DNA from: an uncultured virus (IMG/VR IMGVR_UViG_3300021255_003627)
Taxonomy: Duplodnaviria; Heunggongvirae; Uroviricota; Caudoviricetes
DNA length: 64,000 nt
Virus record (IMG/VR): IMGVR_UViG_3300021255_003627
Reading direction: 5' to 3' (one strand)
Shown here in pieces: positions 1-61,430 of the stretch. Made by a program: the position numbers and the translations under genes. The notes under the pieces are model-generated. The model did no database searches. It was not told the DNA's origin and worked only from the letters and a program-made list of their open reading frames with translations. Numbering within the stretch: the stretch's first letter is position 1; each line of letters opens with the position of its first letter.

Positions 1-2409
1 CCTTTATATTTAGATTATACGTCAACGGGTGGCGTTCAGCCAATCTTGTATCGCCAAGTAGTTCCAAGATATCAAAAACTTCAAGGTTATGTCTTCCAAG
101 ACGAAAACAAGGTTGTGATAGAACCACACCAAAGCAATATTGTTTCTAGGAACTATGATGAGATGCCTGATGCCGATGGCCCATACTTCAATACATATAT
201 TGATAGTAACAGTACTGAATTAAATGGAAATTATTTTGCCGCATTTACTAGAGACGGTTCATATGTCAATACACAAAAAATCGACGGCGTGAACATAAAC
301 ATCGAGAGGAGTCCATCGTTTGCCTCAATAAGCCCAGACATTAGCACTAGAGTCCCAAAACGAAAGGGTTCGGTCATCGAGAGCGGTACAATTAATAGAT
401 TTAGGTTGGCATATGATAAAGGCACGCAAACACTCGAAGGGGATGTCACTAGAAACACGCTACCGTATTTTAGGGGTATGTTTGTTGACAGACGCTTTGA
501 TTACGATTTGGTGATTTTGGCCCCAGTTATGGGTTCTTATTTCACCCTTAACAAAGATAAAGATGCAGAATGGAAAGAAGAGGTTTGGAAAGGTGTCCGT
601 TTATCGGGTACTACGTATAATGGTATAGAGATGGCCTATGATGATGAATATAACATAATATCGGCAAGTACAGAGAACCTCGGAATCAACGAGGGTGAAG
701 ATGGAAAAGTGGAAACGGCATCTGAACTTGGTAGATGGGAATATTCATACACCCTCACATCTAATACCGAATCAGATGCAAAAACAGTTTATAACCTAAG
801 GGGGGGAGACTGTGTATGGAATTCTAAAAACCTATTTTACGATGTTAGTATAGACTCTGAGGATAAGCAGCTTATTAAGCAGTTCTACTCGTCCGACATT
901 AATGGTCTTGATATTAGGCAATTCTATTGGTCTGACTTTAACAAAAAGCGTTTAAGTACGTTTACCAATAGTAGAAGCATCTCAAATGCAGAAAAACCAT
1001 ATGTCTTCAAATACCCGCAAAAACTTCCTAAGTTCTATAATGGTGAATTTAATCGAGAAGATGTTGCCAACAATAAGAATTATCCAACTAGGAGGTATTT
1101 GGATATTGGCAAAATGCCAAGCATTCCGTACTTTAACTTTAATAACACTGGGTGTTCTTATGGCATTAAAACGATGATGACCCAAGACTATAGAATAGAG
1201 TGTAAAGCAACGGAAGGAGAGGTCACAAATATTGAAATTGATTTCTCCAAACCAATAACTATGGTTCAAATGAACGAAGATAATTTAAGTCACGAAAATG
1301 TATTCTATAAAACAAATACAAGAGAACAAGAGAAAATAACGTTTAAGGCAGAAAACGTTAAATTTAGGTTTAAGTTCAATGAGTTCTCTTGCGACAGACA
1401 TGATGTGTACACCAAGACACCAAAAATAATAAGAGTGTTACCGCGTTTCGGTAAAGATGATAAGATTGATGGAATTGGCTATATTAAGTTGTCAAACGAA
1501 GATAATGAATTTCAAGGGCAATATAGTGACGGCAAAACACTCCAAGAAGCAATCAAAGCGGTCACGATATTGGATTTCCCCAACGACTCAAACGACTCAC
1601 TTCCGTTCTCAAGTTTTATCAGATGGAGCGACAGCGGCTATGTTCTTCCAAGCGGTGTAAGGGTGTCAGACAGATATTTCATGAAAAACGGTGAAAAGAT
1701 GAAGTCTAACGACACCGACTTTACGAATATCGAGTGTGTTGCAGTAATGGACAGCAACAAGATAGCCGACACCAAGGTATTCGCTGTATTAATTGAAAGG
1801 GAGTTCAAGGGCAATGAGGATGACAAACTGACAAGAAGGATTGAGAGCGTCGAGTTTTCCGAGATATTCGACTGTAGGGACATAAGTATCGGTTTAATTA
1901 ACGGCATCGACAACTGTTATGTTACGCTCAACAAAACGAGTGATACTAGTAGTAATACGGATGACCAAGGAAACACAAACACCGAGACGACTAACACCAA
2001 ACTTTTCAACCAAATCCTTACATTGACGCTGATATTTAAAACCGATGAGCAAAGTGCTGTTGAGGATTTAAACTGTGAGGCACTAATGGATTCTTCGTCC
2101 ATGTCTTACAAGTTCTTCTTCCGAAACAGCAGTGGTGAACAATTTGAGGTGACCCCGTCGAACATAGAGTTGGAGGAGGGTGATGACATTGTGATGAAGT
2201 TCACCTTGCGTTGGGGTGCTGACATGGGTATATTGTCAGATGGTGTATGGAGAGGTGGTAAATGTAAATGTTCGTTTATGGCGTCGTCAGTGAGCAACTT
2301 CATATATAAGACCGAAGAATTCGCGATTTACGTTGCCGATGATGCTCCGACAAGAGAGCGTATTACCGACCCAGACACACACTATCAAACTATCATAAGA
2401 TTTACCTAA
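1..2409 (+). CDS. Large hypothetical protein, probably virion structural (5'-truncated by window)
   Basis: Frame is open from base 1 to TAA 2409; first of a run of tightly packed giant ORFs; no recognisable motif. Confidence 0.6.
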   Translation, partial: PLYLDYTSTGGVQPILYRQVVPRYQKLQGYVFQDENKVVIEPHQSNIVSRNYDEMPDADGPYFNTYIDSNSTELNGNYFAAFTRDGSYVNTQKIDGVNINIERSPSFASISPDISTRVPKRKGSVIESGTINRFRLAYDKGTQTLEGDVTRNTLPYFRGMFVDRRFDYDLVILAPVMGSYFTLNKDKDAEWKEEVWKGVRLSGTTYNGIEMAYDDEYNIISASTENLGINEGEDGKVETASELGRWEYSYTLTSNTESDAKTVYNLRGGDCVWNSKNLFYDVSIDSEDKQLIKQFYSSDINGLDIRQFYWSDFNKKRLSTFTNSRSISNAEKPYVFKYPQKLPKFYNGEFNREDVANNKNYPTRRYLDIGKMPSIPYFNFNNTGCSYGIKTMMTQDYRIECKATEGEVTNIEIDFSKPITMVQMNEDNLSHENVFYKTNTREQEKITFKAENVKFRFKFNEFSCDRHDVYTKTPKIIRVLPRFGKDDKIDGIGYIKLSNEDNEFQGQYSDGKTLQEAIKAVTILDFPNDSNDSLPFSSFIRWSDSGYVLPSGVRVSDRYFMKNGEKMKSNDTDFTNIECVAVMDSNKIADTKVFAVLIEREFKGNEDDKLTRRIESVEFSEIFDCRDISIGLINGIDNCYVTLNKTSDTSSNTDDQGNTNTETTNTKLFNQILTLTLIFKTDEQSAVEDLNCEALMDSSSMSYKFFFRNSSGEQFEVTPSNIELEEGDDIVMKFTLRWGADMGILSDGVWRGGKCKCSFMASSVSNFIYKTEEFAIYVADDAPTRERITDPDTHYQTIIRFT

Positions 2410-2423
2410 AACTAGTACATAAA

Positions 2424-5400
2424 GTGGAAACAAGGATATTTTTACAAGGTTCAAAAGGCAAGTCTTCAACCAACACTAGCAGTGCGGTGAACGTGGAAGT
2501 AAAGGGTAAGAGAAAACTCTTACCCACCACTGACTATGGTGAGGTATTGAGCCTTTATGAGCAATACTCTGACGAACGAAGGAAATCCAACATAATTCGT
2601 CTCACTTGTCAAGTCAACCCAATTGCGACTAATGTTTTGTTCAACCGAATTACAGAAATCGTGAAGAACGAGGGGAGTGATGACGTCATTTATATCAATT
2701 ACAACCAACCAAATGGTTATCATATTGTTGGTGATTTAAGTTTCAAGAGTAATGAAATATCTTTTTGGAGTGGTCAAAAACAAACACGATACTTTCAGAC
2801 ATTTAGCCCACAATCTGTATCTGACTTTAAAATAGATAAAACGCATCCCACAAATGCTATTAGGGATACGCAATTGTCTAGTTTGGGTTATGTATATCAT
2901 TGTGGAATTGACATATTCAACAACCATTTGGTAAGAAGCAACACATTCAAGACAATCTGCGGATATGGCAAAAGGATAGGCGACTTCAATACCATCGCCG
3001 ACATGATGAGGGAGGTAAACGGCGAGAACGTGAAAGAGAGTTTGTATTTCCCATATGACGCCTTTAAGGGACAAGCAAAAGAAATCTATCTCCACCTCTA
3101 CAAGTACGAGGACCTAGATACGTTTGAGGAAGCCATCAATCGAAAACTAATAAAGAAGTATAACGGTTGGGTCGGATTCAACAACCGTTCAAAGATTAAG
3201 TCATATGAAGTTTTTGCATCTGGAACAGAGTTGAAAATAGAACGTCCTATTATGTATTTGAATGGCGGTGACTTTGTCGATATGTACCCTAGTAGAGACT
3301 TGTATTCTTTTGTCCCTAAGTACAATAAGTTCAAGAAAAGGATTGAAAAAAACTGGAATTACTGCATAACCTACCCAAGTTCGTCTTACACTCCTAGCAA
3401 CGAAGATGATGAATTCTCCGACATTATAGAGACGAATGACGGACTTAACTCATTGAAAGCCTTGTATTTCGACGAAAACACTAGAAGCGACAATGGAACG
3501 ACCCAACTTGTAATCTATGGTATATCTAAGCATGGATTACGACAAGGGGATTATGTGAACATATATAAAACCTATGAGACAAATCTATATTGGGTGGTTA
3601 AAACGGTTGGTGATTACACTCAAGTTGTGTCCAAGAAATATGAGACCGAATCCGAGGCAAAGGACGAGAAAAACATCCTAGAAAGTTATGATGGCGGTAA
3701 TTATGGCATACAATCGCAAGAGGGGGTTCTTGTGAACAAACTCGTCCTTGCAGAGGCTGAGGTGTCTAATGTTGTTGATGACTATATCTTTACTGTTTTC
3801 AACGCTGACACACAGATAAGCAACATGTGGGTGTTACTAACTAAAGACGAAAGAAGAAGTGGCGGTACATTCGATAGTAGGGTTTTCAAGTTTCTGACGG
3901 ATGATAAGCGTTATTTGAATGAGGTTGACGCCGAGGGGCGTCCAGTCTCAGGGAATTACTACATTGTAAACGACACATATGTGAACATAGACAAGAAGGC
4001 CCAGAGAATATCATACAAAAAAACCGTTGGTGGGATTGAGTGTGACTATTACGTAAGGATATTTTCAAGATTGCCAAACTTCAAGTATGCAAGCGGTGAC
4101 ACGTCAAACGAGTATGAGATATACAAGAACGACGAGGAGGTACTGAATGAATATAAAGACATCAAATATGATTTCGACAGCCATATAAGCAGGTTAGCGT
4201 TTGCGCAGAACATCTACGCGGACGAAATCGGAGAAGTTGTTTTCACCGACGACATCGACGTCTCAAACATACATGACAATCTTGGAAGGCCGTTGACGTC
4301 CTTATACTTGACTTTTGTCAAGAACAACAAGGGGTACAAGGAATGGTACGGTTATGACTACCAAACACAAACAACGTGGGCTACGACCCATATCAATTGT
4401 GACAGCGTCGAATATTCGCATGCTTTTGGCAGAATCACTTGTGGTATAAAGACGTCTGATGACGCGGCGTTAAGCGACTCTGTTAAGTCAATTAACAAGA
4501 TAAACAACGTAAGTGGCATAAATTACGGCTACAAAATCGGCGGCGTCATCAATCCATCTTTTAGGACGTATACAACCAAATGTAACGGAAATACCTTGAC
4601 GATGAACGTGAAAGACGAGGAGGTGTGGTATGAGATTGACAAGAACTTCTACGGAGACCTTTGTTACTATGACAATTACAATGCAATTGAGGAAAGCATA
4701 TCTCCTATATTGCATAGGTTCAATACCGCCCAAAGGGAGAGTTCAATGTCTAAATCTAAAGACTATTACGACGCTTTCCTATATGACGAGATAGCGTATG
4801 ACGATTATGACATTTCCTCTAAGTTTACAATAGCTAGTCGCACACAAAATAGTTGTAACGCTTTCAAAGAGGGCTATTACTACGAGCCTCACTATGAGAT
4901 ACCGATTAACACGCTTGCAGCGCTTAAGACTATAGTTCCAGACTTCTTGAACATGAGGGAGTTCAGATATGTTGATAAGGAAGATAAGGTATGTACATAT
5001 AGGATAGTGACCTCAAAGCAGCACTTCTTAACAGTTGGGGATAAGGCGATGATATATGACACATTGCAAGACAAGTACTATAACTTGGAAGTGGTTAGCG
5101 GTGATGGAGACAACTACAACATCTTTACTTGTCGAGTATTTAATGATTCTATGAAATACGATAACGCATTGGGCATAACATTATCGAACAACGGGGTAGA
5201 AAAGACAGTAAAATATATTTCTACAAACAACTCGTTAGGGGAAGTTGAAATCAGCGACTACCGACTTTTCAAGATGGACAATTTGGACGTACCATCATAT
5301 GCCAAGGTTTTGAAAGATGGTACTTGTAGGGTCATTTGGAGGGATGTCATCAAGAATGGGTTTGACACCGATAACGATTCAGTCGAGAAGTATCCATTTA

Positions 5401-52091: not shown

Positions 52092-53777
52092 ATGAATAGT
52101 AAAAACTTGTTTGCGGAGGCAGTCTTCACACCTAGCACATCATTCACCTTGACTGAAAACGGAGCAAAGACACTGACCTCAACCAATTCTGCCATTGTGG
52201 ACCAATTTGGTAAAGCAGGAAACTATCGAGGCCGCTCGATTGCAGACGTATTTAAAGACCAAGCAGAAATTTGGGAGGAAAATGCGGAACTAGCGCTTCG
52301 TCTACCTTTCTACTTGAGAATGGTCACGAGAAAGACAAAAATCTCCAAGGGAAAAGAGACCGATAGGGTTCAGAGCGGACAAGGCGCAAGGGATGAAGCA
52401 TTTAAGAGGCTTTTGTGGGTTGCCAAAGAAAAACAAGATGCATTCTATAACAACATATGGCTTTTGCCAATTGTCGGTTCATGGAAGGATTTCTATACCC
52501 TTATGTTCTATGATGTAAAGGAAAACCTTAACGTCATCAATAGAGAGGCAATATATGAGATTATCGCACAAGGTCTTTTGAGCGAAACCCACGTTGATTT
52601 GGTTAAGAAATACATGCCTAGAATCAAATCCAACAAAAAATGCACGACGGAATGGACAAGATGTACAAATATGTTTGCAAAAGAATTTGCAAACATAATG
52701 AAAATGTCCTTCAAGGAATACAACAAACTAAAAGTAAGCGGAAAAGCACACGAGTTCCAAAAACTCATATGCTCTAGAAGGTTCAATGAACTTAAATGGG
52801 ATAAGATTCCAGGACGCGCACTTAGCATCATCACATCAACCAAATTCTTGGAAAACCACAATCTCGTTGATGATTATACAAAATGGATAGAAGAACAGCC
52901 AGTGGCAAAATACACTGGGTATGTCTTTGAACTTGCCGCCAAACTAAAGAAAGAGGTGCTCAGTAGGCGTTGTGGTAATTTCTACCACGGAGACATTGGT
53001 TTTAGGACACGTTTACCATTGCACATAAAACATACTATTGACGCACAGTTCAATTCGTTGGTCGCACAAGCGGAGGCCGACGGAAAGATTAACGAAAACG
53101 TATGGTGCTGCCTAGACACAAGTGGTTCAATGCAAAGACAAGTAAATGGCTTGAAAGGGATAACTTGTGGCGATATAGCTGACTCTTTGGCATTGTTCTT
53201 CACAACCCTAAACAATGGGGCTTTCCACAATAAACTCATTATGTTCGACCATAAATCCTACCCTTATACAATGGAAGGAGAGTCATTCTGTGAAAGGTTC
53301 CTAAAACTACCTAGCGTGAGTTGTGGAAGCACAAACTTCCAATCGGCAATTGATGAAATAATTAAGATTAGGAAGGAACATCCAGAAATCCCATTGGAGC
53401 AGTACCCGACAACCGTTCTAGTGGTTTCTGATATGCAATTTAATGCTGTAGACCGCTCTAGTTCTTATCGAAACCAACCAACAAACTACGAGTATTCCGT
53501 GCAGTCATTGAAAAGTGTCTTTCCAAGTGAGTTCGTGGACAATATGAAGTTCATTTGGTGGGACGTGACCTCTAGGTATGGGAATACAGACTTTGAGGGT
53601 GATTGTTCTACTCCAGGAGTGTATTACTTCAGTGGGTTTGACGGTTCAATTATGAATCTCATATTGGGCAACACTTCTGTTGTTGATGAGGGTACGAAGA
53701 AAGTTCGTCAGATGACGGCCTCTGAAATGGTTGAAAAGGCCCTAAACCAAGAGATACTTACGTATATTAGGATTTAA
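52092..53777 (+). CDS. TROVE-like/DUF2828 + vWA domain protein (Ro60-like architecture)
   Basis: TENGA, GQGARD, GSWKD, KYMPR; MIDAS DTSGSM, STNF and VSDMQF. Confidence 0.8.
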   Translation: MNSKNLFAEAVFTPSTSFTLTENGAKTLTSTNSAIVDQFGKAGNYRGRSIADVFKDQAEIWEENAELALRLPFYLRMVTRKTKISKGKETDRVQSGQGARDEAFKRLLWVAKEKQDAFYNNIWLLPIVGSWKDFYTLMFYDVKENLNVINREAIYEIIAQGLLSETHVDLVKKYMPRIKSNKKCTTEWTRCTNMFAKEFANIMKMSFKEYNKLKVSGKAHEFQKLICSRRFNELKWDKIPGRALSIITSTKFLENHNLVDDYTKWIEEQPVAKYTGYVFELAAKLKKEVLSRRCGNFYHGDIGFRTRLPLHIKHTIDAQFNSLVAQAEADGKINENVWCCLDTSGSMQRQVNGLKGITCGDIADSLALFFTTLNNGAFHNKLIMFDHKSYPYTMEGESFCERFLKLPSVSCGSTNFQSAIDEIIKIRKEHPEIPLEQYPTTVLVVSDMQFNAVDRSSSYRNQPTNYEYSVQSLKSVFPSEFVDNMKFIWWDVTSRYGNTDFEGDCSTPGVYYFSGFDGSIMNLILGNTSVVDEGTKKVRQMTASEMVEKALNQEILTYIRI

Positions 53778-53782
53778 CATAT

Positions 53783-53826
53783 AAGAAATAAGAGGAACAG
53801 ATGTTTAGTTCCTCTTATTTCTTTTA
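53783..53826 (+). terminator. Intrinsic terminator
   Basis: AAGAAATAAGAGGAAC...GTTCCTCTTATTTCTT. Confidence 0.8.
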
Positions 53827-53947
53827 GCAAATCTTTTTTTCATTGTAAGAATCTCTGACTACATAGAAAATAATTTTTTCTTAAAAAAAGTGAATATTTT
53901 TGTTGTTTTTGCGGCAAAAATATATCTTTGCATCGAATAGGTAGATT

Positions 53948-54067
53948 ATGTTTAAGAAAAAACGGAAGAAAAAAAATAAGCCAAGACAAGCAATGAGCCA
54001 AAAACAAATGACAAAGATGTATGATTCATTGTTGTCAAAGAAGAGGTTATCGGTTTGTCTTGTATAG
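53948..54067 (+). CDS. 39-aa Lys-rich peptide upstream of tyrS
   Basis: MFKKKRKKKNKPRQAMSQKQMTKMYDSLLSKKRLSVCLV*; first ORF after the promoter at 53923. Confidence 0.4.
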   Translation: MFKKKRKKKNKPRQAMSQKQMTKMYDSLLSKKRLSVCLV

Positions 54068-54115
54068 GTTTTGGCAAGGATTGTTAAACGAGTTTTAAAT
54101 AGTTTTTTTTTAAAG

Positions 54116-55417
54116 ATGGATAATTCAAAAAAATTAGTTGAGGAACTTAAGGCTAGGGGTCTAATATCTAGCACGAACGGTGATTTGTACGAAGCATTTT
54201 CAAAACAAGCGACATTTTATGTTGGGACAGACAGCACAGGAGACAGCCTTCATGTTGGTCACCTATTGGCATTTACAACGGCTAAGTTGTTACAGTCCTA
54301 TGGACATAAGCCAATCGTTTTGGTTGGCTCATTCACCGCCAAGATTGGTGACCCGTCATTTCGTGACACTTCTCGTCCAATGATTAGTGACGAACAAGTC
54401 GCCCACAATACGAAGTGTATCAAGGAGCAAGTTAGTCGTTTGATTGATTTTGATAGTGACATTCCAAATAAGGCCATTATGGTTGATAATGAGGAATGGA
54501 TGTCCAATATGAGTTTTGGTGACTTCATGAACAATGTCGCCAAACTGACCACCGTCAACTATATGATGGCAAAGGAGTCCGTCAAGAAGCGCCTTGATAG
54601 GGATGGCGAGGGTTTATCCTTGTGTGAATTTTTGTATATGTGTTGCCAAGGTTATGACTTTTTACATTTGTATAAGGAGTACAATTGTAATGGACAGATT
54701 GGTGGTCAAGACCAATACGGAAATTGCACAATAGGGCAAGAGTTTATTAGAAAGTCGCTTGGTAAGACGGATACATTTGTTATTACATGGCCTTTGGTGA
54801 CAAGGGCAGACGGAACCAAGTTCGGCAAATCTAGCAACGGTAAGAACGTTTGGTTGGACGCCAATAAGACTTCCTCGTTCGAGTTTTACCAATTTTGGCT
54901 GAACCAATCCGACAACGATGCCGAGGCATTCATCAAGAAATTCACCCTAATACCGTTGGAAGAAATTGACACAATGGTTGCGAGGCATAAGGAGAACCCT
55001 AGCAAGCGTTACTTGCAGATGGAGTTATCCAAATATATGACTTGTCTTGTACATGGCGAGGAAGAGTACAAAAAGGCAGTTGAGGCTTCAAATATTTTGT
55101 TCGGCAATGGGACGTTGGAGCAATTGAAGACAATCGAAGAAACAACCCTTCTATCCGCAATGGGCGGCGTGTCGAAGGTCGAGGTTAGCAAAGAATCATT
55201 TGATAATGGAATCCTTGTCCTAGACGTTGCATCTATGCATGATAAGGTTTCGTCAAAATCAGAGGCGAGAAAACTCATTAAGGCTAATGGTTTTTCTGTT
55301 AATAAAGAAAAGGTGACGGACGAAAAATCCACCATTGGCGCTGACAAACTAATCAATGGGAAATATCTTTTGCTGACAAAGGGCAAAAAAGACTATTGCC
55401 TTGTGGTAGTAGGATAA
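54116..55417 (+). CDS. tyrS: Tyrosyl-tRNA synthetase
   Basis: SLHVGH (HIGH), IGDPS, QGYDF, QIGGQDQYGN, KFGKS (KMSKS) and a C-terminal S4 domain. Confidence 0.95.
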   Translation: MDNSKKLVEELKARGLISSTNGDLYEAFSKQATFYVGTDSTGDSLHVGHLLAFTTAKLLQSYGHKPIVLVGSFTAKIGDPSFRDTSRPMISDEQVAHNTKCIKEQVSRLIDFDSDIPNKAIMVDNEEWMSNMSFGDFMNNVAKLTTVNYMMAKESVKKRLDRDGEGLSLCEFLYMCCQGYDFLHLYKEYNCNGQIGGQDQYGNCTIGQEFIRKSLGKTDTFVITWPLVTRADGTKFGKSSNGKNVWLDANKTSSFEFYQFWLNQSDNDAEAFIKKFTLIPLEEIDTMVARHKENPSKRYLQMELSKYMTCLVHGEEEYKKAVEASNILFGNGTLEQLKTIEETTLLSAMGGVSKVEVSKESFDNGILVLDVASMHDKVSSKSEARKLIKANGFSVNKEKVTDEKSTIGADKLINGKYLLLTKGKKDYCLVVVG

Positions 55418-55507
55418 TGTGCTTAACAAATGTTAAAAACAATGTCTTGCGGTTAAGAGAAAATTAGAAAATTGAATAGTAAACAATATATTGGAAACCT
55501 AAACTAA

Positions 55508-57277
55508 ATGGGAAAAGTTATTTTTACAAAATCAGACAAATTCACATCAGAATACTGTTGCAGTATTGTGAAGATTGGCGAGGTTAAAGCGATTGAGGGT
55601 AAGGACAAGATTGGCTACACCATTGTCAATGGCGAGACAATTGTGGTCCGTAAAGACCAAGTCAAGGAAGGTGATGTTCTTTTCTATGCTTCTAATGAGA
55701 CGCAGTTGGATAAGGGGTTTCTCGGTGCCAATAACCTTTTTGAGGCTTCTTCATACGAGCTCAATGCTAATGCAAACGAACTTAAACCTATTGTTGAGAA
55801 GAACAAGGAATTGAAGGTGGAGTTCGAGAATGTCGATAAAATCATTAGGAAACTCTCCACTTGCTCGGCGTTTATGGATGCGTATGAGGGTGAGATTATT
55901 GCAGCAAGCGGCGATGAGGATAAGGAGGAGGAACTTACGACTAAGTTCAATAACTGCAAGAAAACCATCATGAAGTATGCTGGTGGTAATTTGACCTTGG
56001 AATCATCTGTAAGTGATTTCGTCGCAACCGCAAATTCTCAGTGCGAGGAGAAGAAGGCTCAATATGAATCACTTAAAAACCTTATTGATGCGAATGCAAA
56101 TACAATAAGAAACAGTGTTGGTTTCTTCAATAAAACTGGTCGTGTACGCGCCATACGTCTTGGCGGCGTTCAGTCAATGGGCTACCTTTTCTCGATTGAT
56201 GAACTTGCAAGGTATAACCCAAATGTAAAGGACGTGAATGTCGACAACCTTGTTGGAGAAGATTTCGATACGATTGAAGGTGAACTTTTCATCAAGGCAT
56301 ATGTTCCATTTGTTCCCCAACGAGGCAATAAAGGTGATGGGAAGTCAAAAGACCGCAAGCGCAACAAAAAGATTGAGGAGTTCAACAGAATGGTCAAAGG
56401 TGAATTCTTTTTCCATTACAGCACAGACCCATTGCCAAAGTGTATCAATAGGGTTAAGCCAAATGATGTTGTGACAATAACAAGTAAGTTACACGGGACA
56501 TCAATCGTTATTGGCAAACTTCACGTGAAGACACCAATCAAATTACCATTCCACAAGTACATTTGGAATAAGTTCGTTGATTTGACAAGACTATTCAAAC
56601 CATACCGTTTTACAGACTACATTGTGGAGTATGGTAACGTAACCTCTTCACGCACTGTCATTAAAAACCAATATATCAACAAACAAGTCAAAGAAGGGTT
56701 CTACGGAGTTGACATATGGACGGAGTATGGCAACTTGATTTATCCTTTCATTGACGAGGGCATGACAATCTATGGCGAGATTGTTGGGTACATCACCAAT
56801 TCTGACAAGATGATTCAGAGTGGTTATGACTATGGCTGTGAAAATGGAGAGAACAAGTTGATGATATACCGCATTACCACGACCAATGACGATGGCACTA
56901 AACACGAGTGGAACGTCATCGAAGTCAAGGAGTGGACCGAAAGGCTGATTAGTGAACATCCTGAAATCAAGGATAGAATCCACGTTATCGATTTGCTTTA
57001 TCATGGTACGCTTGCAGATTTCTACCCAGAGATTTCAATTGAGAGTCATTGGCACGAAAATGTGCTTGAAGCCATGAGGAATGACAAGAAACGGCTGAAT
57101 ATGGAAAAGAACGACCCTATCTGCAAAAACAAAGTTCCGTTCGAGGGTATTGTGCTTCGCATTGACAATGACGAACTTGCAGAGGCGTTCAAGTTGAAGA
57201 CTCAGAAGTTCTTGTCAAAGGAACGTGAAAGCATTGATGCTGGTAAAGTCGATATTGAAATGGCAGACACTTATTAG
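55508..57277 (+). CDS. ATP-dependent RNA ligase (DRB0094-like) with N-terminal OB/tRNA-binding domain
   Basis: N-terminal IEGKDKI...RVRAIRLGGVQSMGYL; NTase motifs KLHGTS, YGEIVG, EGIVLR and FKLK. Confidence 0.8.
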   Translation: MGKVIFTKSDKFTSEYCCSIVKIGEVKAIEGKDKIGYTIVNGETIVVRKDQVKEGDVLFYASNETQLDKGFLGANNLFEASSYELNANANELKPIVEKNKELKVEFENVDKIIRKLSTCSAFMDAYEGEIIAASGDEDKEEELTTKFNNCKKTIMKYAGGNLTLESSVSDFVATANSQCEEKKAQYESLKNLIDANANTIRNSVGFFNKTGRVRAIRLGGVQSMGYLFSIDELARYNPNVKDVNVDNLVGEDFDTIEGELFIKAYVPFVPQRGNKGDGKSKDRKRNKKIEEFNRMVKGEFFFHYSTDPLPKCINRVKPNDVVTITSKLHGTSIVIGKLHVKTPIKLPFHKYIWNKFVDLTRLFKPYRFTDYIVEYGNVTSSRTVIKNQYINKQVKEGFYGVDIWTEYGNLIYPFIDEGMTIYGEIVGYITNSDKMIQSGYDYGCENGENKLMIYRITTTNDDGTKHEWNVIEVKEWTERLISEHPEIKDRIHVIDLLYHGTLADFYPEISIESHWHENVLEAMRNDKKRLNMEKNDPICKNKVPFEGIVLRIDNDELAEAFKLKTQKFLSKERESIDAGKVDIEMADTY

Positions 57278-57283
57278 TTGTCA

Positions 57284-57592
57284 TTAGAAAAACGGATTGT
57301 TTGACAAAGAATCAATTATGGTTTGATACTTTTGGCATGTCTCTTGAAAATCGTTTACATCGTCATGGCATAAGTCAAACCATTCCCCGTTAATCCTTGA
57401 GGAGTTGAACCGATTGTGAAGCATTGTTTCAAGTTTAAATGGCTTATCGGTCTCAAAGTTGTCCTTTAAGTAGATGACGGAAGAGTTGCCAGTTTGCAAC
57501 TGCTTGATTCGTTTGCCGATGTCCGATGAATTGGTTGAACCAATTTTATATCCTTCTCGCCCCATCTCTTTAAGAAGATAAACGTATCCCAT
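57284..57592 (-). CDS. GIY-YIG family (T5orf172/MUG113) nuclease domain protein
   Basis: GYVYL, YKIG, RIKQLQTGN, LETMLH and GEWF. Confidence 0.85.
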   Translation of the reverse strand: MGYVYLLKEMGREGYKIGSTNSSDIGKRIKQLQTGNSSVIYLKDNFETDKPFKLETMLHNRFNSSRINGEWFDLCHDDVNDFQETCQKYQTIIDSLSNNPFF

Positions 57593-57712
57593 GTCTAAAA
57601 AATAGTTAAAAATGGGAAGATGTTAAAGGTTTTTATTGGTTGGATGGAATATTTTCCGTATATTTGCAACAATAACAATTTTTATTAACAAAATAATAAA
57701 GGAAAAAACAAA

Positions 57713-58495
57713 ATGAAGAAAATTATTTTTATGCTTTTTGTGGCTATGTTTAGTACAGAAAGTTTTTGCCAAACTGAACCAGATTTTGCAATGGAACCAC
57801 ACGTTTTTAACTTCGCAGACTCCACCTTTGAGGTACCCCTACCTTGTGAGAGGACCTATGTGCGTGGAAAGGCTGACGCCTCATTGTATATTTTTGGTGT
57901 AGGAAAAACTAGTGTTTATCGTTACATTGATGGAGAAAAATCACCTTTAGAGATTGACAAAAACGTTAGTGGCATTATCATCAATACAGACGGTGAATCA
58001 CCAGTACACACCCTTTCCATCAACAAACTTGAAATACTAAAGACAAAACGAAGATGGAAAACTCATGAAAGTGGCACTTTTACGGGGTCGTCATACGGTA
58101 CAGATGCCTCTGTTGGGTTGAAGTATAAGAAATATGGCAAGAATTCCGTTATCATCAAAACTTCTGATTTGTCACCAGGGGAATATTGTATTACTGCTAT
58201 CAACATCAAAACTACCACAAACAATTTTAAAGCATTCACATTCAGAGTTAAAGGTGTAATCATAGATACCTACGAGAAATATTATGTTCGAGTTGTTGGA
58301 GGAAAAGGCGAAACTCTTCATATCCACAACACATCGGGTGACCTCATCCAAACCATTGACATTAAAACTGACGACGAGCGATTTAGACCCAAATTAAAGA
58401 AGAAAAATTCTTACATTTTAAAAGTTGGGTCGTCAGAAGAAAAAATTTCAATTGATAGGAATGGTTTTGTTTCAATTGACACTTCGTTTTTGTGA
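57713..58495 (+). CDS. Exported hypothetical protein (signal peptide)
   Basis: MKKIIFMLFVAMFSTESFCQ, a Bacteroidota-type signal ending at Gln. Confidence 0.65.
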   Translation: MKKIIFMLFVAMFSTESFCQTEPDFAMEPHVFNFADSTFEVPLPCERTYVRGKADASLYIFGVGKTSVYRYIDGEKSPLEIDKNVSGIIINTDGESPVHTLSINKLEILKTKRRWKTHESGTFTGSSYGTDASVGLKYKKYGKNSVIIKTSDLSPGEYCITAINIKTTTNNFKAFTFRVKGVIIDTYEKYYVRVVGGKGETLHIHNTSGDLIQTIDIKTDDERFRPKLKKKNSYILKVGSSEEKISIDRNGFVSIDTSFL

Positions 58496-58545
58496 TACCA
58501 CAAAGAATTGTAAAACATTTGAATAATTTTTAATATATTTATTTT

Positions 58546-58716
58546 ATGTACACAATTATTTGTTTAATCATTTTTTTTGGAATGTTTGTGGCAGTGAATG
58601 TGCCAAAACCTTGTACCGAAGAGACAAAAAAATCTTTGATTCCAGTCTTCCTCGTCGCGTTGATTGTTTCAGTTTTGATTGACATGTTTATTTTTCTACT
58701 TTGCTACGTTTTTTGA
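58546..58716 (+). CDS. 56-aa protein with two hydrophobic segments
   Basis: MYTIICLIIFFGMFVAVNVPKPCTEETKKSLIPVFLVALIVSVLIDMFIFLLCYVF*; ends 2 nt before the rtcB ATG. Confidence 0.45.
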   Translation: MYTIICLIIFFGMFVAVNVPKPCTEETKKSLIPVFLVALIVSVLIDMFIFLLCYVF

Positions 58717-58718
58717 TT

Positions 58719-59255
58719 ATGATTGAAATTAAAGGAAAACATTGTAAGGATTTGAAAATCTTTACTGACAATATAGAGGAAACGGCTTTATCCACTTTAT
58801 ACAAAGTGGCAGATGAAGTTCCGTATGAGAACACTAAAATACGAATCATGCCAGACGTACATCAAGGCGTTGGCAACACAGTTATTGGTTTTTCTTGTCC
58901 TATTGACCTCGAAAACGGTTATGTATCGGTACAAGCGGTTGGGTGCGATTTAGGCTGTTCGGTAAGTGCTTGGTTTTATGAGAAGCCGATTTCAGACGAC
59001 AAGATACAAGAGTTTGAGCACAAAATCCGAAAGGTCATACCGTTTGGTTTTAACATCAATCAGAAAAGCAAGGTTGATGTGAAGTGCCTAATCAAGGAAA
59101 TAAACAAGTCAATACAACGCATTGTGTCAAGACATCCGATTCTCTCTGATTATTCGATTGAGTTCAAGAGTGAGAGAGACCTTGAAAAATGGTGTGATAG
59201 GATTGGTATGGACTATGGTGTATTCCTAAAATCCATCGGAACTGTTGGCGGTGGT
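58719..59255 (+). CDS. rtcB: RtcB RNA ligase, exon 1
   Basis: MPDVHQG, VGCDLGC; ends SIGTVGGG. Confidence 0.9.
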
Positions 59256-60163
59256 GAAACGATTGCCACCGTGTGAGTTAATAGCTCACAGTAGTTAAAT
59301 TCGTCCAAATCGGTGGAGCCTGTGACGGTAATACCGAGGGAAGTGCTCTGACAATAGTCAACACCCCGTAACGAGCGGAGGGACTTGAAATGTCGTTTTA
59401 AATAGGCATAAGGTGCGCTCTGAACTATAGAGAAAAAGAATCTATAGAGAATGTCAGAAATGAGCATTCCAATTAATATTGAAAATGACCACTTCTTCAT
59501 TATTATTTATAATATATAAGTAATAATATGTTGAATAAAGACAAGAGTTATATTTTTGGTATTTTAATAACAGATGGTAGTTTATATTTAACCACTAGAA
59601 ATAGGGGGAAAGTAACATTAGAAATCTCTAAAAAAGACGAAGATTTAGTTGATAAATTAATCAAATTAGTTCCGTTTTCGACTAAAAGTACTAGAACTAG
59701 AAAAACTAATTTTTGCGCAAGTGGTACTGACTTTGTTTCTTTTAAAAATTATAGGAGAGAATTTAGAGAAAATCTAATTGAGAATGGCTTCCCAACAAAA
59801 AATAAAGCAATAAACGCATCAACTCCTTCTGAAGAATATGATGAAGTTTCTTTTTGGAGAGGCGTTATTGATGGGGATGGAAGTATAGGCGTGACTAATA
59901 AAAACGAGCCATTTGTTTCTCTAGTTACAAAAAGTGAAAATCTTAAAAATAAATACTTAGAATTTTTACACAAAAATTTTGGAATAGCCAAAAATGTAAA
60001 CAAGAACAAAAGAGACAATGTATACAATATTGTTGTAAAAAATAAAAACGCTAGAGACTTAGTTGATTTACTATACAACAATAAAGAAATACATCTTAAT
60101 CGTAAATATGATAAAGCAATGTTTATCCTTGAAAATTTTCAATATTAATTAGTAACAAATTTG
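59256..60163 (+). mobile_element. Group I self-splicing intron with homing endonuclease
   Basis: P1 CGGUGGU/GCCACCG with U.G at the splice site; GAUU/AAUC P10; P4 UCGGU/ACCGA; P7 GAGCG/CGCUC; terminal G at 60163. Removal restores GGG-NH. Confidence 0.9.
59528..60148 (+). CDS. Double-motif LAGLIDADG homing endonuclease (intron-encoded)
   Basis: YIFGILITDGSL and FWRGVIDGDGSI motifs; markedly AT-rich. Confidence 0.9.
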   Translation: MLNKDKSYIFGILITDGSLYLTTRNRGKVTLEISKKDEDLVDKLIKLVPFSTKSTRTRKTNFCASGTDFVSFKNYRREFRENLIENGFPTKNKAINASTPSEEYDEVSFWRGVIDGDGSIGVTNKNEPFVSLVTKSENLKNKYLEFLHKNFGIAKNVNKNKRDNVYNIVVKNKNARDLVDLLYNNKEIHLNRKYDKAMFILENFQY

Positions 60164-60952
60164 AATCATTACGTTGAATATGATGTAAACGAAGAGTTAG
60201 GAAAATATTGTATTTGTGTGCATTGTGGTTCTAGAAACTTGGGTCAAAAGGTCTTTAAGTATTGGGATAAGATTGCAAAAACCATGTGCATTTCAAAGGA
60301 TGAAATGAGGGCAATTACTGATGGGGTGAAGGCGACAGTGAAAGATAAGACCATCCTTTCGAAAGCAATAAAGGAAGCAAGGGAGGAATATCTTAAGGGT
60401 AGGATACCAAACTTCTTAAATGGGGAAAACATGTACAAGTACTTGATGGATGTGGCAGTTGCCCAAACATATGCAAGAATTAATCACGAGACGATTCAAG
60501 AACAAATATCAGAAATTTATATGTTTTTGTCGAAGGGTGCAAAGGTTGTAGATAAAATCTACACCACCCACAATTATGTTGACTTAGGTGATATGGTTCT
60601 GAGAAAAGGCGCAGTTCGTTCATATATCGGAGAGAGGCTGATTATTCCTTTTAACATGCGAGATGGTATAGGAATATTTGAGGGAAAATCAAATGAGGAT
60701 TGGAACTGTACAGCCCCGCATGGATGTGGAAGGCTTTACAGCAGAAGTAAGGCAAAAGAGCAGCTTAGCGTGGAAAACTTTAAGACAGAAATGGCTGCGG
60801 CTGGAATATACACAACCACAGCAGATGCCTCCACTTTGGATGAGGCACCTCAAGCCTACAAGTCTTATGAAGAGATTTTGGAGTTGATTGAGCCTACAGT
60901 TAATGTGCTCTATCTGATGAAACCAAAAATCAATATCAAGGCATCGGAATAG
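60164..60952 (+). CDS. rtcB: RtcB RNA ligase, exon 2
   Basis: NHYVE, VHCGSRNLG, HNYV, RKGA, PHGCGR and DEAPQAYK; spliced product 441 aa. Confidence 0.9.
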   Translation, partial: NHYVEYDVNEELGKYCICVHCGSRNLGQKVFKYWDKIAKTMCISKDEMRAITDGVKATVKDKTILSKAIKEAREEYLKGRIPNFLNGENMYKYLMDVAVAQTYARINHETIQEQISEIYMFLSKGAKVVDKIYTTHNYVDLGDMVLRKGAVRSYIGERLIIPFNMRDGIGIFEGKSNEDWNCTAPHGCGRLYSRSKAKEQLSVENFKTEMAAAGIYTTTADASTLDEAPQAYKSYEEILELIEPTVNVLYLMKPKINIKASE

Positions 60953-61430
60953 TGCCATCGATTTTCTCTTTTAAGAAATGTGTGAAATATGGCTTTGGTT
61001 TTGATTGGTAATACTCTTTCGCCCATTGGCGTTTTGTTTTAAGTGGTATCCCCTCTAGTTCTTTCCATAGCCATACGCTACCATTTTTACAATAATCCCA
61101 ATTGTCTTGTTGTAGGTATGCCTCCATTTCCATAGGTTCAAACTTGTATGGGGCATAAATGTCAACAAATATAAGTGGTAGGTTTTTTATCCATTCCCAT
61201 ACATATGTGACATAAAATCTAAACCAAGAGTCTTTTGTAGACTCTGCTTGTCTTATATGTATGGTCTCATGCGATTTTAGTTGAGAGTCAATCTCGTCGC
61301 TTTTGTTAAGGTCGTCTGCGTCATTCTTTGTCTTGCAGTACGCATAACCTTTCCAAACAAAACACTTGAAATTTGGTGGCAATATCCATGCTTTTTTGCC
61401 TTTGACACATTTGAATTCGCTAGGTTTCAT
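60936..61430 (-). CDS. HExxH zincin-like protein
   Basis: HETIHIRQ...EMEAY; start MKPSEF after TATTTAT at 61442(-). Confidence 0.6.
   Translation of the reverse strand: MKPSEFKCVKGKKAWILPPNFKCFVWKGYAYCKTKNDADDLNKSDEIDSQLKSHETIHIRQAESTKDSWFRFYVTYVWEWIKNLPLIFVDIYAPYKFEPMEMEAYLQQDNWDYCKNGSVWLWKELEGIPLKTKRQWAKEYYQSKPKPYFTHFLKEKIDGTIPMP

Follow-up and report, generated by a model that had tools for sequence, protein, structure and literature searches.

In phage T4 the endonucleases encoded by group I introns are of the GIY-YIG or HNH type and not LAGLIDADG, and in cyanophage S-PM2 an intron in psbA and a free-standing endonuclease, F-CphI, are said to act together in collaborative homing. Inteins have also been described in rtcB, and two sources list RtcB among intein hosts (PMC4760082; bioRxiv 10.1101/2025.01.02.630785). 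Here we analyse a stretch of 64,000 nucleotides (nt), hereafter the window, from an uncultured virus of the Caudoviricetes (IMG/VR record IMGVR_UViG_3300021255_003627), in which rtcB, the gene of an RNA 3'-phosphate/5'-OH ligase of RNA repair, is interrupted between the codons for GGG and NH (written GGG|NH). We hold it to be very probable that the interruption is a mobile group I intron bearing a LAGLIDADG endonuclease gene, lodged in the rtcB of a very large phage. This reading is carried by an exact exon join, a ribozyme structure that covaries among relatives, recurrence of the insertion at one site, alleles that lack the intron or only its open reading frame (ORF), and a link to introns certified by Rfam.

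The interruption of rtcB

Both halves of rtcB are recognised by the Pfam RtcB profile, and they flank an insert with stops in the rtcB frame:

58719-59255 (plus strand): rtcB exon 1, 179 codons, 3' end GGC GGU GGU (GGG); Pfam RtcB E 8.9e-10, profile 8-104
59256-60163 (plus strand): predicted group I intron, 908 nt, last base G
60164-60952 (plus strand): rtcB exon 2, 262 codons plus stop, 5' end AAU CAU (NH); Pfam RtcB E 2e-35 over 60164-60949, profile 154-425

Scripted joining of the exons without 59256-60163 gives 441 amino acids (aa) reading GTVGGG|NHYVE, as the first-pass annotation of this DNA had claimed, and an uninterrupted homologue bears the join out. This 454-aa RtcB, on a viral contig (L001) whose downstream genes are also common to the window, aligns through residues 1-178 with exon 1 (56% identity) and through residues 179-448 with exon 2 (61%), so that the join neither loses nor adds a residue. 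In alignment with an RtcB homologue of solved structure, the motifs HCGSRNLG and PHGCGR of the joined protein fall opposite HSGSRGLG and CHGAGR, and we take the residues of these motifs to have catalytic roles; the break itself falls inside a metal-binding motif. Judged by alignment, removal of the insert restores a full-length RtcB domain with its conserved motifs.

The insert is not a fixed feature of the gene. Intron-less alleles in related phages, which had been suggested as worth a survey, do exist: the rtcB matches of four viral relatives (L001-L004) are uninterrupted, and the sequences of L001-L003 carry GS[VL]G[GS]GNH[FY] at the join position. Among the best 120 relatives of exon 2 in the protein collection, 109 are at least 405 aa long, and a natural two-gene RtcB, the outcome that had been named as fatal to the intron, is thus not what the homologues display. 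Ten of the eleven relatives shorter than 405 aa were fetched for inspection. The N-terminus is exactly MNH in P0002, P0003, P0005 and P0094, as it is in the window's own product P0001, these proteins being exon 2 called from an in-frame UUG at the end of the intron (263 aa); P0109 and P0120 start five residues after the MNH point and are ambiguous, and P0029, P0054, P0057 and P0070 are N-terminally truncated, yet read through GGGNH. We conclude from the inspected relatives that the insert is a minority, polymorphic state.

Two other kinds of insert were considered and ruled out. An intein does not fit because 908 is not a multiple of three and the insert has stops in the rtcB frame; for a group II intron, there is neither a reverse transcriptase nor an Rfam match, and the boundaries fit group I.

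Structure and covariation of the insert RNA

A group I structure was drawn by hand, with the following paired regions (P) and joining segments (J):

59249-59271 (plus strand): P1, exon CGGUGGU (59249-59255) with internal guide GCCACCG (59265-59271); U59255.G59265 at the splice site
59261-59264 (plus strand): P10 guide GAUU, complementary to exon 2 AAUC (60164-60167)
59272-59290 (plus strand): P2 hairpin, 6 base pairs (bp) (59272-59277/59285-59290), loop UUAAUAG
59300-59306 (plus strand): P3 5' strand, UUC and GUCC, pairing with GGAC (59381-59384) and GAA (59387-59389) and crossing P7 as a pseudoknot
59310-59337 (plus strand): P4 (59310-59315/59332-59337), J4/5 GA, P5 (59318-59320/59327-59329), J5/4 AA
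59338-59367 (plus strand): P6 and P6a (59338-59340/59365-59367 and 59343-59345/59362-59364)
59373-59377 (plus strand): P7 5' strand GAGCG, pairing with CGCUC (59416-59420); presumed guanosine-binding helix
59381-59389 (plus strand): P3 3' strand, GGAC, UU bulge, GAA
59390-59409 (plus strand): P8 hairpin
59410-59424 (plus strand): J8/7 AAGGUG, P7 3' strand CGCUC (59416-59420), J7/9 UGAA
59425-59447 (plus strand): P9 hairpin, 7 bp
59449-59469 (plus strand): P9a hairpin with conserved loop CAGAAAUGA
59471-59486 (plus strand): P9b 5' strand, pairing with 60135-60150, the endonuclease gene looped out
60135-60150 (plus strand): P9b 3' strand, overlapping the last codons and stop of the endonuclease gene
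60151-60163 (plus strand): conserved 3' tail UAGUAACAAAUUUG, terminal G at 60163

Comparison material came from a blastn search with the non-coding segment 59240-59530, which found homologous segments in 16 loci (about 11 distinct sequences, 67-81% identity), lying just upstream of an endonuclease gene. At all examined loci the insertion is at the same rtcB codon, G(T/S)xGGG|NH(F/Y/C), and the exon proteins differ widely. Twelve introns, whose cores share 67-77% identity with one another by blastn, were aligned with MAFFT (alignment A2) without fitting to any structure, and the drawn structure, comprising P1, P2, P3 with a 3-bp extension over the UU bulge, P4-P9 and P9a, was tested on this alignment. 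Standard pairs fill 95.8% of the 693 cells of the 58 proposed pairs, against a mean of 75.5% in shuffled alignments, none of 500 of which reached it; since several rows are close relatives (L086/L010, L093/L090/L094, L085/L005), such a cell count makes independent events look more numerous than they are, and it is safer to count pairs and pair types. By that safer measure, 34 of the 58 pairs change on both sides, compared with 5-14 in six controls whose 3' partners were slid by 1-3 columns, and the covariation score is 0.620 against 0.062-0.137 in the same controls. Folded alone, the RNA has a minimum free energy z of -4.48 relative to 200 shuffles.

The splice sites take part in this covariation. 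All seven pairs of P1 are formed in 12/12 introns and the terminal U.G is invariant, and two of the pairs covary (CG in seven introns and UA in five; AU in nine and UA in three). Their exon bases are third positions of glycine codons (GGC/GGU and GGU/GGA), which means that the guide of the intron tracks silent changes in rtcB. The P10 guide is invariant in A2, and exon 2 starts with AAUCA in all 11 other introns checked. P9.0 pairs A59423 and A59424 with U60162 and U60161, and it covaries in 11/11 introns: J7/9 GAAC accompanies a UUG tail in eight, and GAUC accompanies AUG in three (L094, L015, L085). The 3' boundary, GUAACAA...UG|AAUCA, is kept in 10/11 introns checked, L015 having AUAACAA. 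Tail GUAACAA and J2/3 are both almost invariant, and a pairing between them was weighed by eye. The length of the tail varies among relatives, from AAUUG to AAUUUUUG, and the last UG or AUG is kept.

Within the core, P7 is 100% paired with 3/5 pairs changing on both sides, and the adjoining AAGGU of J8/7 is invariant in A2. P3 is paired in 98.8% of cells and its outermost pair occurs in four types; P4 is 91.7% and P5 97.2% paired, with three pairs changing on both sides; P8 (96.7%) has such changes in 4/5 pairs. All six pairs of P2 change on both sides, as do 6/7 of P9 and 6/6 of P9a, both of which are 100% paired. The insert thus has the splice-site features of group I introns (U.G in P1, terminal G, P10, P9.0) and the P3-P9 order of their core. 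The comparison upholds what had been proposed from the window alone for P1 with its U.G pair, for P10, for the terminal G60163 and for P2, and the pairing of the P4, P7, P8 and P9 stems holds across the 12 introns. For P3 the proposed 5' strand stands and its partner does not: the 3' strand is not GGAGGGA (59378-59384), but GGAC (59381-59384) plus GAA (59387-59389) over a UU bulge.

P9b is a long-range helix. In the window it is a 16-bp duplex (-14.5 kcal/mol, z -3.7), and 11/11 introns have an equivalent helix of 7-16 bp and unrelated sequence, running from after P9a to before the tail GUAACAA; this pairing places the endonuclease gene in the P9b loop.

Introns without that gene were found by scanning viral contigs for the core motif, which occurs at 35 loci and lies in rtcB at GGG|NH in 34 of them. 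Five of these 34 are ORF-bearing introns from the earlier searches, and the other 29 are ORF-less introns of 240-251 nt, 27 of them forming one group with nearly identical exons and two having other exons. Examples from the L170-L203 set, on viral contigs of 148-401 kb, are:

L170, 1469-1719: ORF-less rtcB intron
L172, 1484-1725: ORF-less rtcB intron
L187, 1489-1728: ORF-less rtcB intron

Where the window intron has its ORF, the ORF-less introns have a small P9b hairpin, followed by AGUAACA...UG. The ribozyme is evidently complete in about 250 nt, and the extra 650 nt of the window intron are the endonuclease gene in one loop. An exact 23-nt core string had no match in the viral contigs. At one locus (L185, about 1480-1760) the same ribozyme subfamily, with core motif, P9a loop and tail AGUAACAAAUCUG, is found in a gene other than rtcB, with an upstream frame of 313 aa; shortly after it, at 1771-3123, the other strand carries a large GIY-YIG-like ORF.

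Relation to recognised group I introns

Several results weigh against the reading of the insert as a mobile group I intron, and they are best taken together. Searched at its gathering threshold, the Rfam model Intron_gpI (RF00028) matches neither the window nor any of 20 loci, and relaxing the limit to E<=10 brings up no match on 59150-60300, on 59236-59530 or on 13 family loci; the link of the insert to group I is structural and transitive, not direct. P6 is the weakest helix, 81.9% paired on the MAFFT alignment, with three pairs changing on both sides, and the relatedness of several A2 rows has been noted above. Three metatranscriptome runs gave no cover of the stretch, a result that says nothing about expression. 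Finally, the last three intron bases, UUG (AUG in some relatives), are in frame with exon 2 and are used as a start by gene callers, and separate translation of exon 2 is formally conceivable.

The Rfam miss is a sensitivity gap of RF00028, which is patchy on phage introns in a T4 control: of its five matches at E<=1, the best has 105.3 bits and exceeds the 50-bit cut-off, and the next two, at 40.3 and 35.7 bits, stay below it. A covariance model of the family core from P3 to P9a (R1; 163 positions, 40 pairs) scores family members at 138-181 bits and the window intron at 162. On distant introns, R1 gives 64.6 bits for L102, 48.7 for L017, 48.6 and 34.6 for L076, 37.8 for L103 and 31.6 for L107; L102, L103, L107 and L017 are rtcB introns at GGG|NH. 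Rfam Intron_gpI itself accepts L102 (68.4 bits) and L076 (58 and 54.8), above its cut-off of 50, each match agreeing with that of R1 in position and strand. In two deposited phages the matches of both models also coincide, with Rfam again above its cut-off: BSP36 (R1 50.1 bits, Rfam 72.6) and 278BB001 (R1 48.5, Rfam 71). On the best T4 intron R1 reaches 17.4 bits (E 0.0097 in 38 kb), on the same strand as the Rfam match and overlapping it, the segment that aligns well being J8/7-P7-J7/9-P9. Assignment to group I rests, then, on the defining structural features and on a chain of homology to Rfam-accepted introns at the same site. The first-pass annotation had proposed to let group I covariance models decide, and had counted the lack of a hit against itself: RF00028 indeed gives none, which formally tells against the intron, whereas R1 connects it to certified introns in rtcB. 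A group I intron splitting rtcB at GGG|NH is supported by this other route, through structure and R1 homology. DNA similarity of 58600-61000 to deposited phages was nil. L076 has two group I introns in tandem about 100 nt apart (1162-1786, minus strand), beside a distant endonuclease homologue on a GC-rich contig.

Could the subfamily's distance from the Rfam consensus mean that the intron is real and its splicing lost in this phage, leaving rtcB a pseudogene? P7 is GAGCG/CGCUC here and GACU/AGUC in Rfam-positive relatives, which would fit such a loss; the variant P7, though, keeps its pairing through compensatory changes, every helix is intact in the window copy, and its 162 bits under R1 fall within the family range. 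Both exons and the endonuclease ORF are moreover open and conserved, and a variant about 91% identical, from another sample, also has the ORF joined to exon 2. We regard loss of splicing as very improbable.

The in-frame UUG invites a different account, in which an endonuclease cassette cut rtcB into two separately translated genes whose products assemble with no RNA splicing. Gene callers do report exon 2 alone as a 263-aa protein, five products beginning with MNH (P0001, P0002, P0003, P0005, P0094); GenBank entries of Bacillus phages carry the labels 'RtcB N terminus', 'HTH homing endonuclease' and 'RtcB C terminus'; and the same endonuclease family also occurs free-standing beside rtcB. A bare cassette would not account for the approximately 270 non-coding nt that separate exon 1 from the endonuclease gene and that are conserved and covary as a group I core, nor for a guide sequence that follows synonymous exon changes. 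The UUG/AUG bases and J7/9 change together, as expected of P9.0, and the break lies inside a metal-binding motif. The ORF-less inserts of 240-251 nt interrupt rtcB as well, and they have no endonuclease that could account for it. With this evidence to hand, we give the split-gene account very little credence and retain that of a mobile group I intron.

The intron-borne endonuclease and the states of the site

The account of the insert given by the first-pass annotation had left its one gene unmentioned:

59528-60148 (plus strand): LAGLIDADG homing endonuclease gene, 206 aa, intact; Pfam LAGLIDADG_3 1.9e-13, LAGLIDADG_1 4.3e-05

The search for relatives gave 155, of which 27 were aligned (alignment A1); D16, G17, D115, G116 and G118 are the same in all of them, and D117 in at least 90%, the pattern of a predicted single-chain LAGLIDADG enzyme with two motifs and conserved acidic residues in one ORF. 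A single-protein query confirmed no relative in the viral contigs; the alignment query then succeeded, and with A1, DNA could be retrieved from both metagenome and viral contigs. A tblastn search of deposited phages found relatives of 39-40% identity in five Bacillus subtilis phages.

Members of this family (39-54% identity) also stand free directly upstream of an uninterrupted rtcB in three loci, L022 having duplicates, and directly downstream of one in a fourth:

L022, 2001-4025: region with a free-standing endonuclease gene upstream of rtcB
L091, 2001-3868: region with a free-standing endonuclease gene upstream of rtcB
L105, 2001-4175: region with a free-standing endonuclease gene upstream of rtcB
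L029, 510-2585: region with a free-standing endonuclease gene downstream of rtcB

R1 finds no intron in these four loci, and Rfam at gathering none in L022 and L091. In L102, the intron (about 1875-2953, minus strand) holds an endonuclease homologue at 2001-2561 on the plus strand, opposite to both intron and rtcB. Association with the locus suggests that the endonuclease would cleave intron-less rtcB at the insertion site. Other family members adjoin metallophosphatase genes or tRNA arrays; in L012 (551-1528) and L013 (104-1014), six to seven tRNAs lie directly upstream of homologues of 53-54% identity, with no R1-type intron nearby.

We offer a tentative history, which we find plausible without rating it as quite probable. 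GGG|NH of phage rtcB may be a long-lived, shared homing site at which all stages of an intron-endonuclease association are found: empty; occupied by an ORF-less intron; occupied by an intron with an ORF in the P9b loop, in sense (the window) or antisense (L102); and flanked by a free-standing endonuclease. The endonuclease may first have targeted rtcB alone and then have moved, on more than one occasion, into an intron already present. The lineage may also have crossed between phages whose hosts differ greatly (Bacillus Herelleviridae and gut-type phages of 200-400 kb), and the branch of the window may have drifted beyond the reach of the standard group I model.

Proposed mechanism

Splicing, its dependence on guanosine, the activity and target of the endonuclease, and homing are all what the behaviour of the intron family would lead one to expect. 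The pre-mRNA would contain a ribozyme of about 230 nt (P1-P9a, 59249-59469), followed by P9b enclosing the endonuclease gene and by a 13-nt tail ending at G60163. Free guanosine bound at P7 would attack after U59255 in the U.G wobble at the end of P1, after which P10 (GAUU/AAUC) and P9.0 would place G60163 in the guanosine site, and ligation at GGU|AAU would restore GGGNH and the 441-aa RtcB. The endonuclease would cut the intron-less rtcB of co-infecting phages, and repair would copy the intron in. The use of guanosine nucleotides by both splicing and RtcB, to which attention had been drawn, appears to be a coincidence; no mechanistic link was seen.

One further run (X1, available as contigs only and of a kind not on record) covers 59864-60952 with 66 differences in 731 bases, and no joined exons were seen in it. 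In this variant, about 91% identical, the T-run of the 3' tail of the intron (window 60159-60163) is longer by one T.

Genomic context and significance

Relatives of the window's rtcB are found on viral contigs of 128-413 kb, and PHROGs on the window include tail-fibre, SbcC-like, SSB and other phage families, which suggests that the window derives from a very large phage. The genes that precede rtcB are:

54071-55417: tyrosyl-tRNA synthetase
55508-57277: RNA ligase (PF09414)
57284-57592 (minus strand): T5orf172/MUG113 (GIY-YIG-related) protein, 102 aa, flanked by the RNA ligase gene and the ORF that precedes rtcB

The last of these may be another free-standing selfish nuclease remnant. The run of RNA-related genes at 52092-60952, which includes phrog_850 'RNA-binding protein' (Pfam DUF7788/DUF2828), looks like a phage cluster for RNA repair and translation support.

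The intron is a familiar kind of selfish element with no new mechanism, and its host gene is one for which we found no published report: a full-text search, with subscription journals and supplements outside its scope, returned no paper in which a group I intron is described for rtcB. That the host gene is unusual, as had been claimed, holds with respect to published descriptions and not with respect to occurrence; the insertion recurs in many phages and is present in GenBank records of Bacillus phages as an unexplained split gene. The phage genes that group I introns invade now include one of RNA repair, and the 'split RtcB' annotations of deposited Bacillus phage genomes find an explanation. 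Since the Rfam model misses a well-conserved branch of phage group I introns, such introns are being under-counted and the genes they interrupt wrongly taken for fragments; a better covariance model could be seeded with alignment A3 and its structure. With intron-less, ORF-less, ORF-bearing and free-standing-endonuclease states at one site, rtcB would also make a convenient natural system for the study of the partnership between intron and endonuclease.

Comparison with described systems

The inteins of RtcB in bacteria, archaea and actinobacteriophages are likewise selfish elements with a homing endonuclease, removed after transcription to restore the ligase. They differ in being in frame and spliced at the protein level, whereas the window insert is 908 nt long, has stops in the rtcB frame and adopts a ribozyme fold. 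The Pyrococcus RtcB intein presumably sits at a different motif from GGG|NH.

The S-PM2 arrangement has a counterpart around rtcB, where ORF-less introns and free-standing endonucleases occur separately; the two were not found together in one genome among the loci examined. The window differs in that its endonuclease lies inside the intron. The td, nrdB and nrdD/sunY introns of T4 resemble the window intron in lying inside a conserved, catalytically important coding segment and in carrying the endonuclease gene in a peripheral loop. Their hosts are genes of nucleotide metabolism, in contrast to the RNA-repair ligase gene of the window, and the window intron has no helices between P3 and P8 and has its ORF in the P9b loop near the 3' end.

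Closest of all are the introns of BSP36 (MH707436) and 278BB001 (MZ501265), Herelleviridae of Bacillus subtilis that are unrelated to the window phage. Their rtcB is interrupted at the same point (SLGGG|NHFIE), and the parts follow one another as in the window: exon 1 precedes the ribozyme, after which come the endonuclease gene, the tail (GUAACAgaUUG) and exon 2. The encoded endonuclease, a homologue at 39% identity, is longer, with 261 aa against the 206 aa of the window. Their introns have a longer P5 region and, unlike that of the window, are recognised by Rfam Intron_gpI, and yet both records are annotated as a split RtcB plus a homing endonuclease, and not as an intron.

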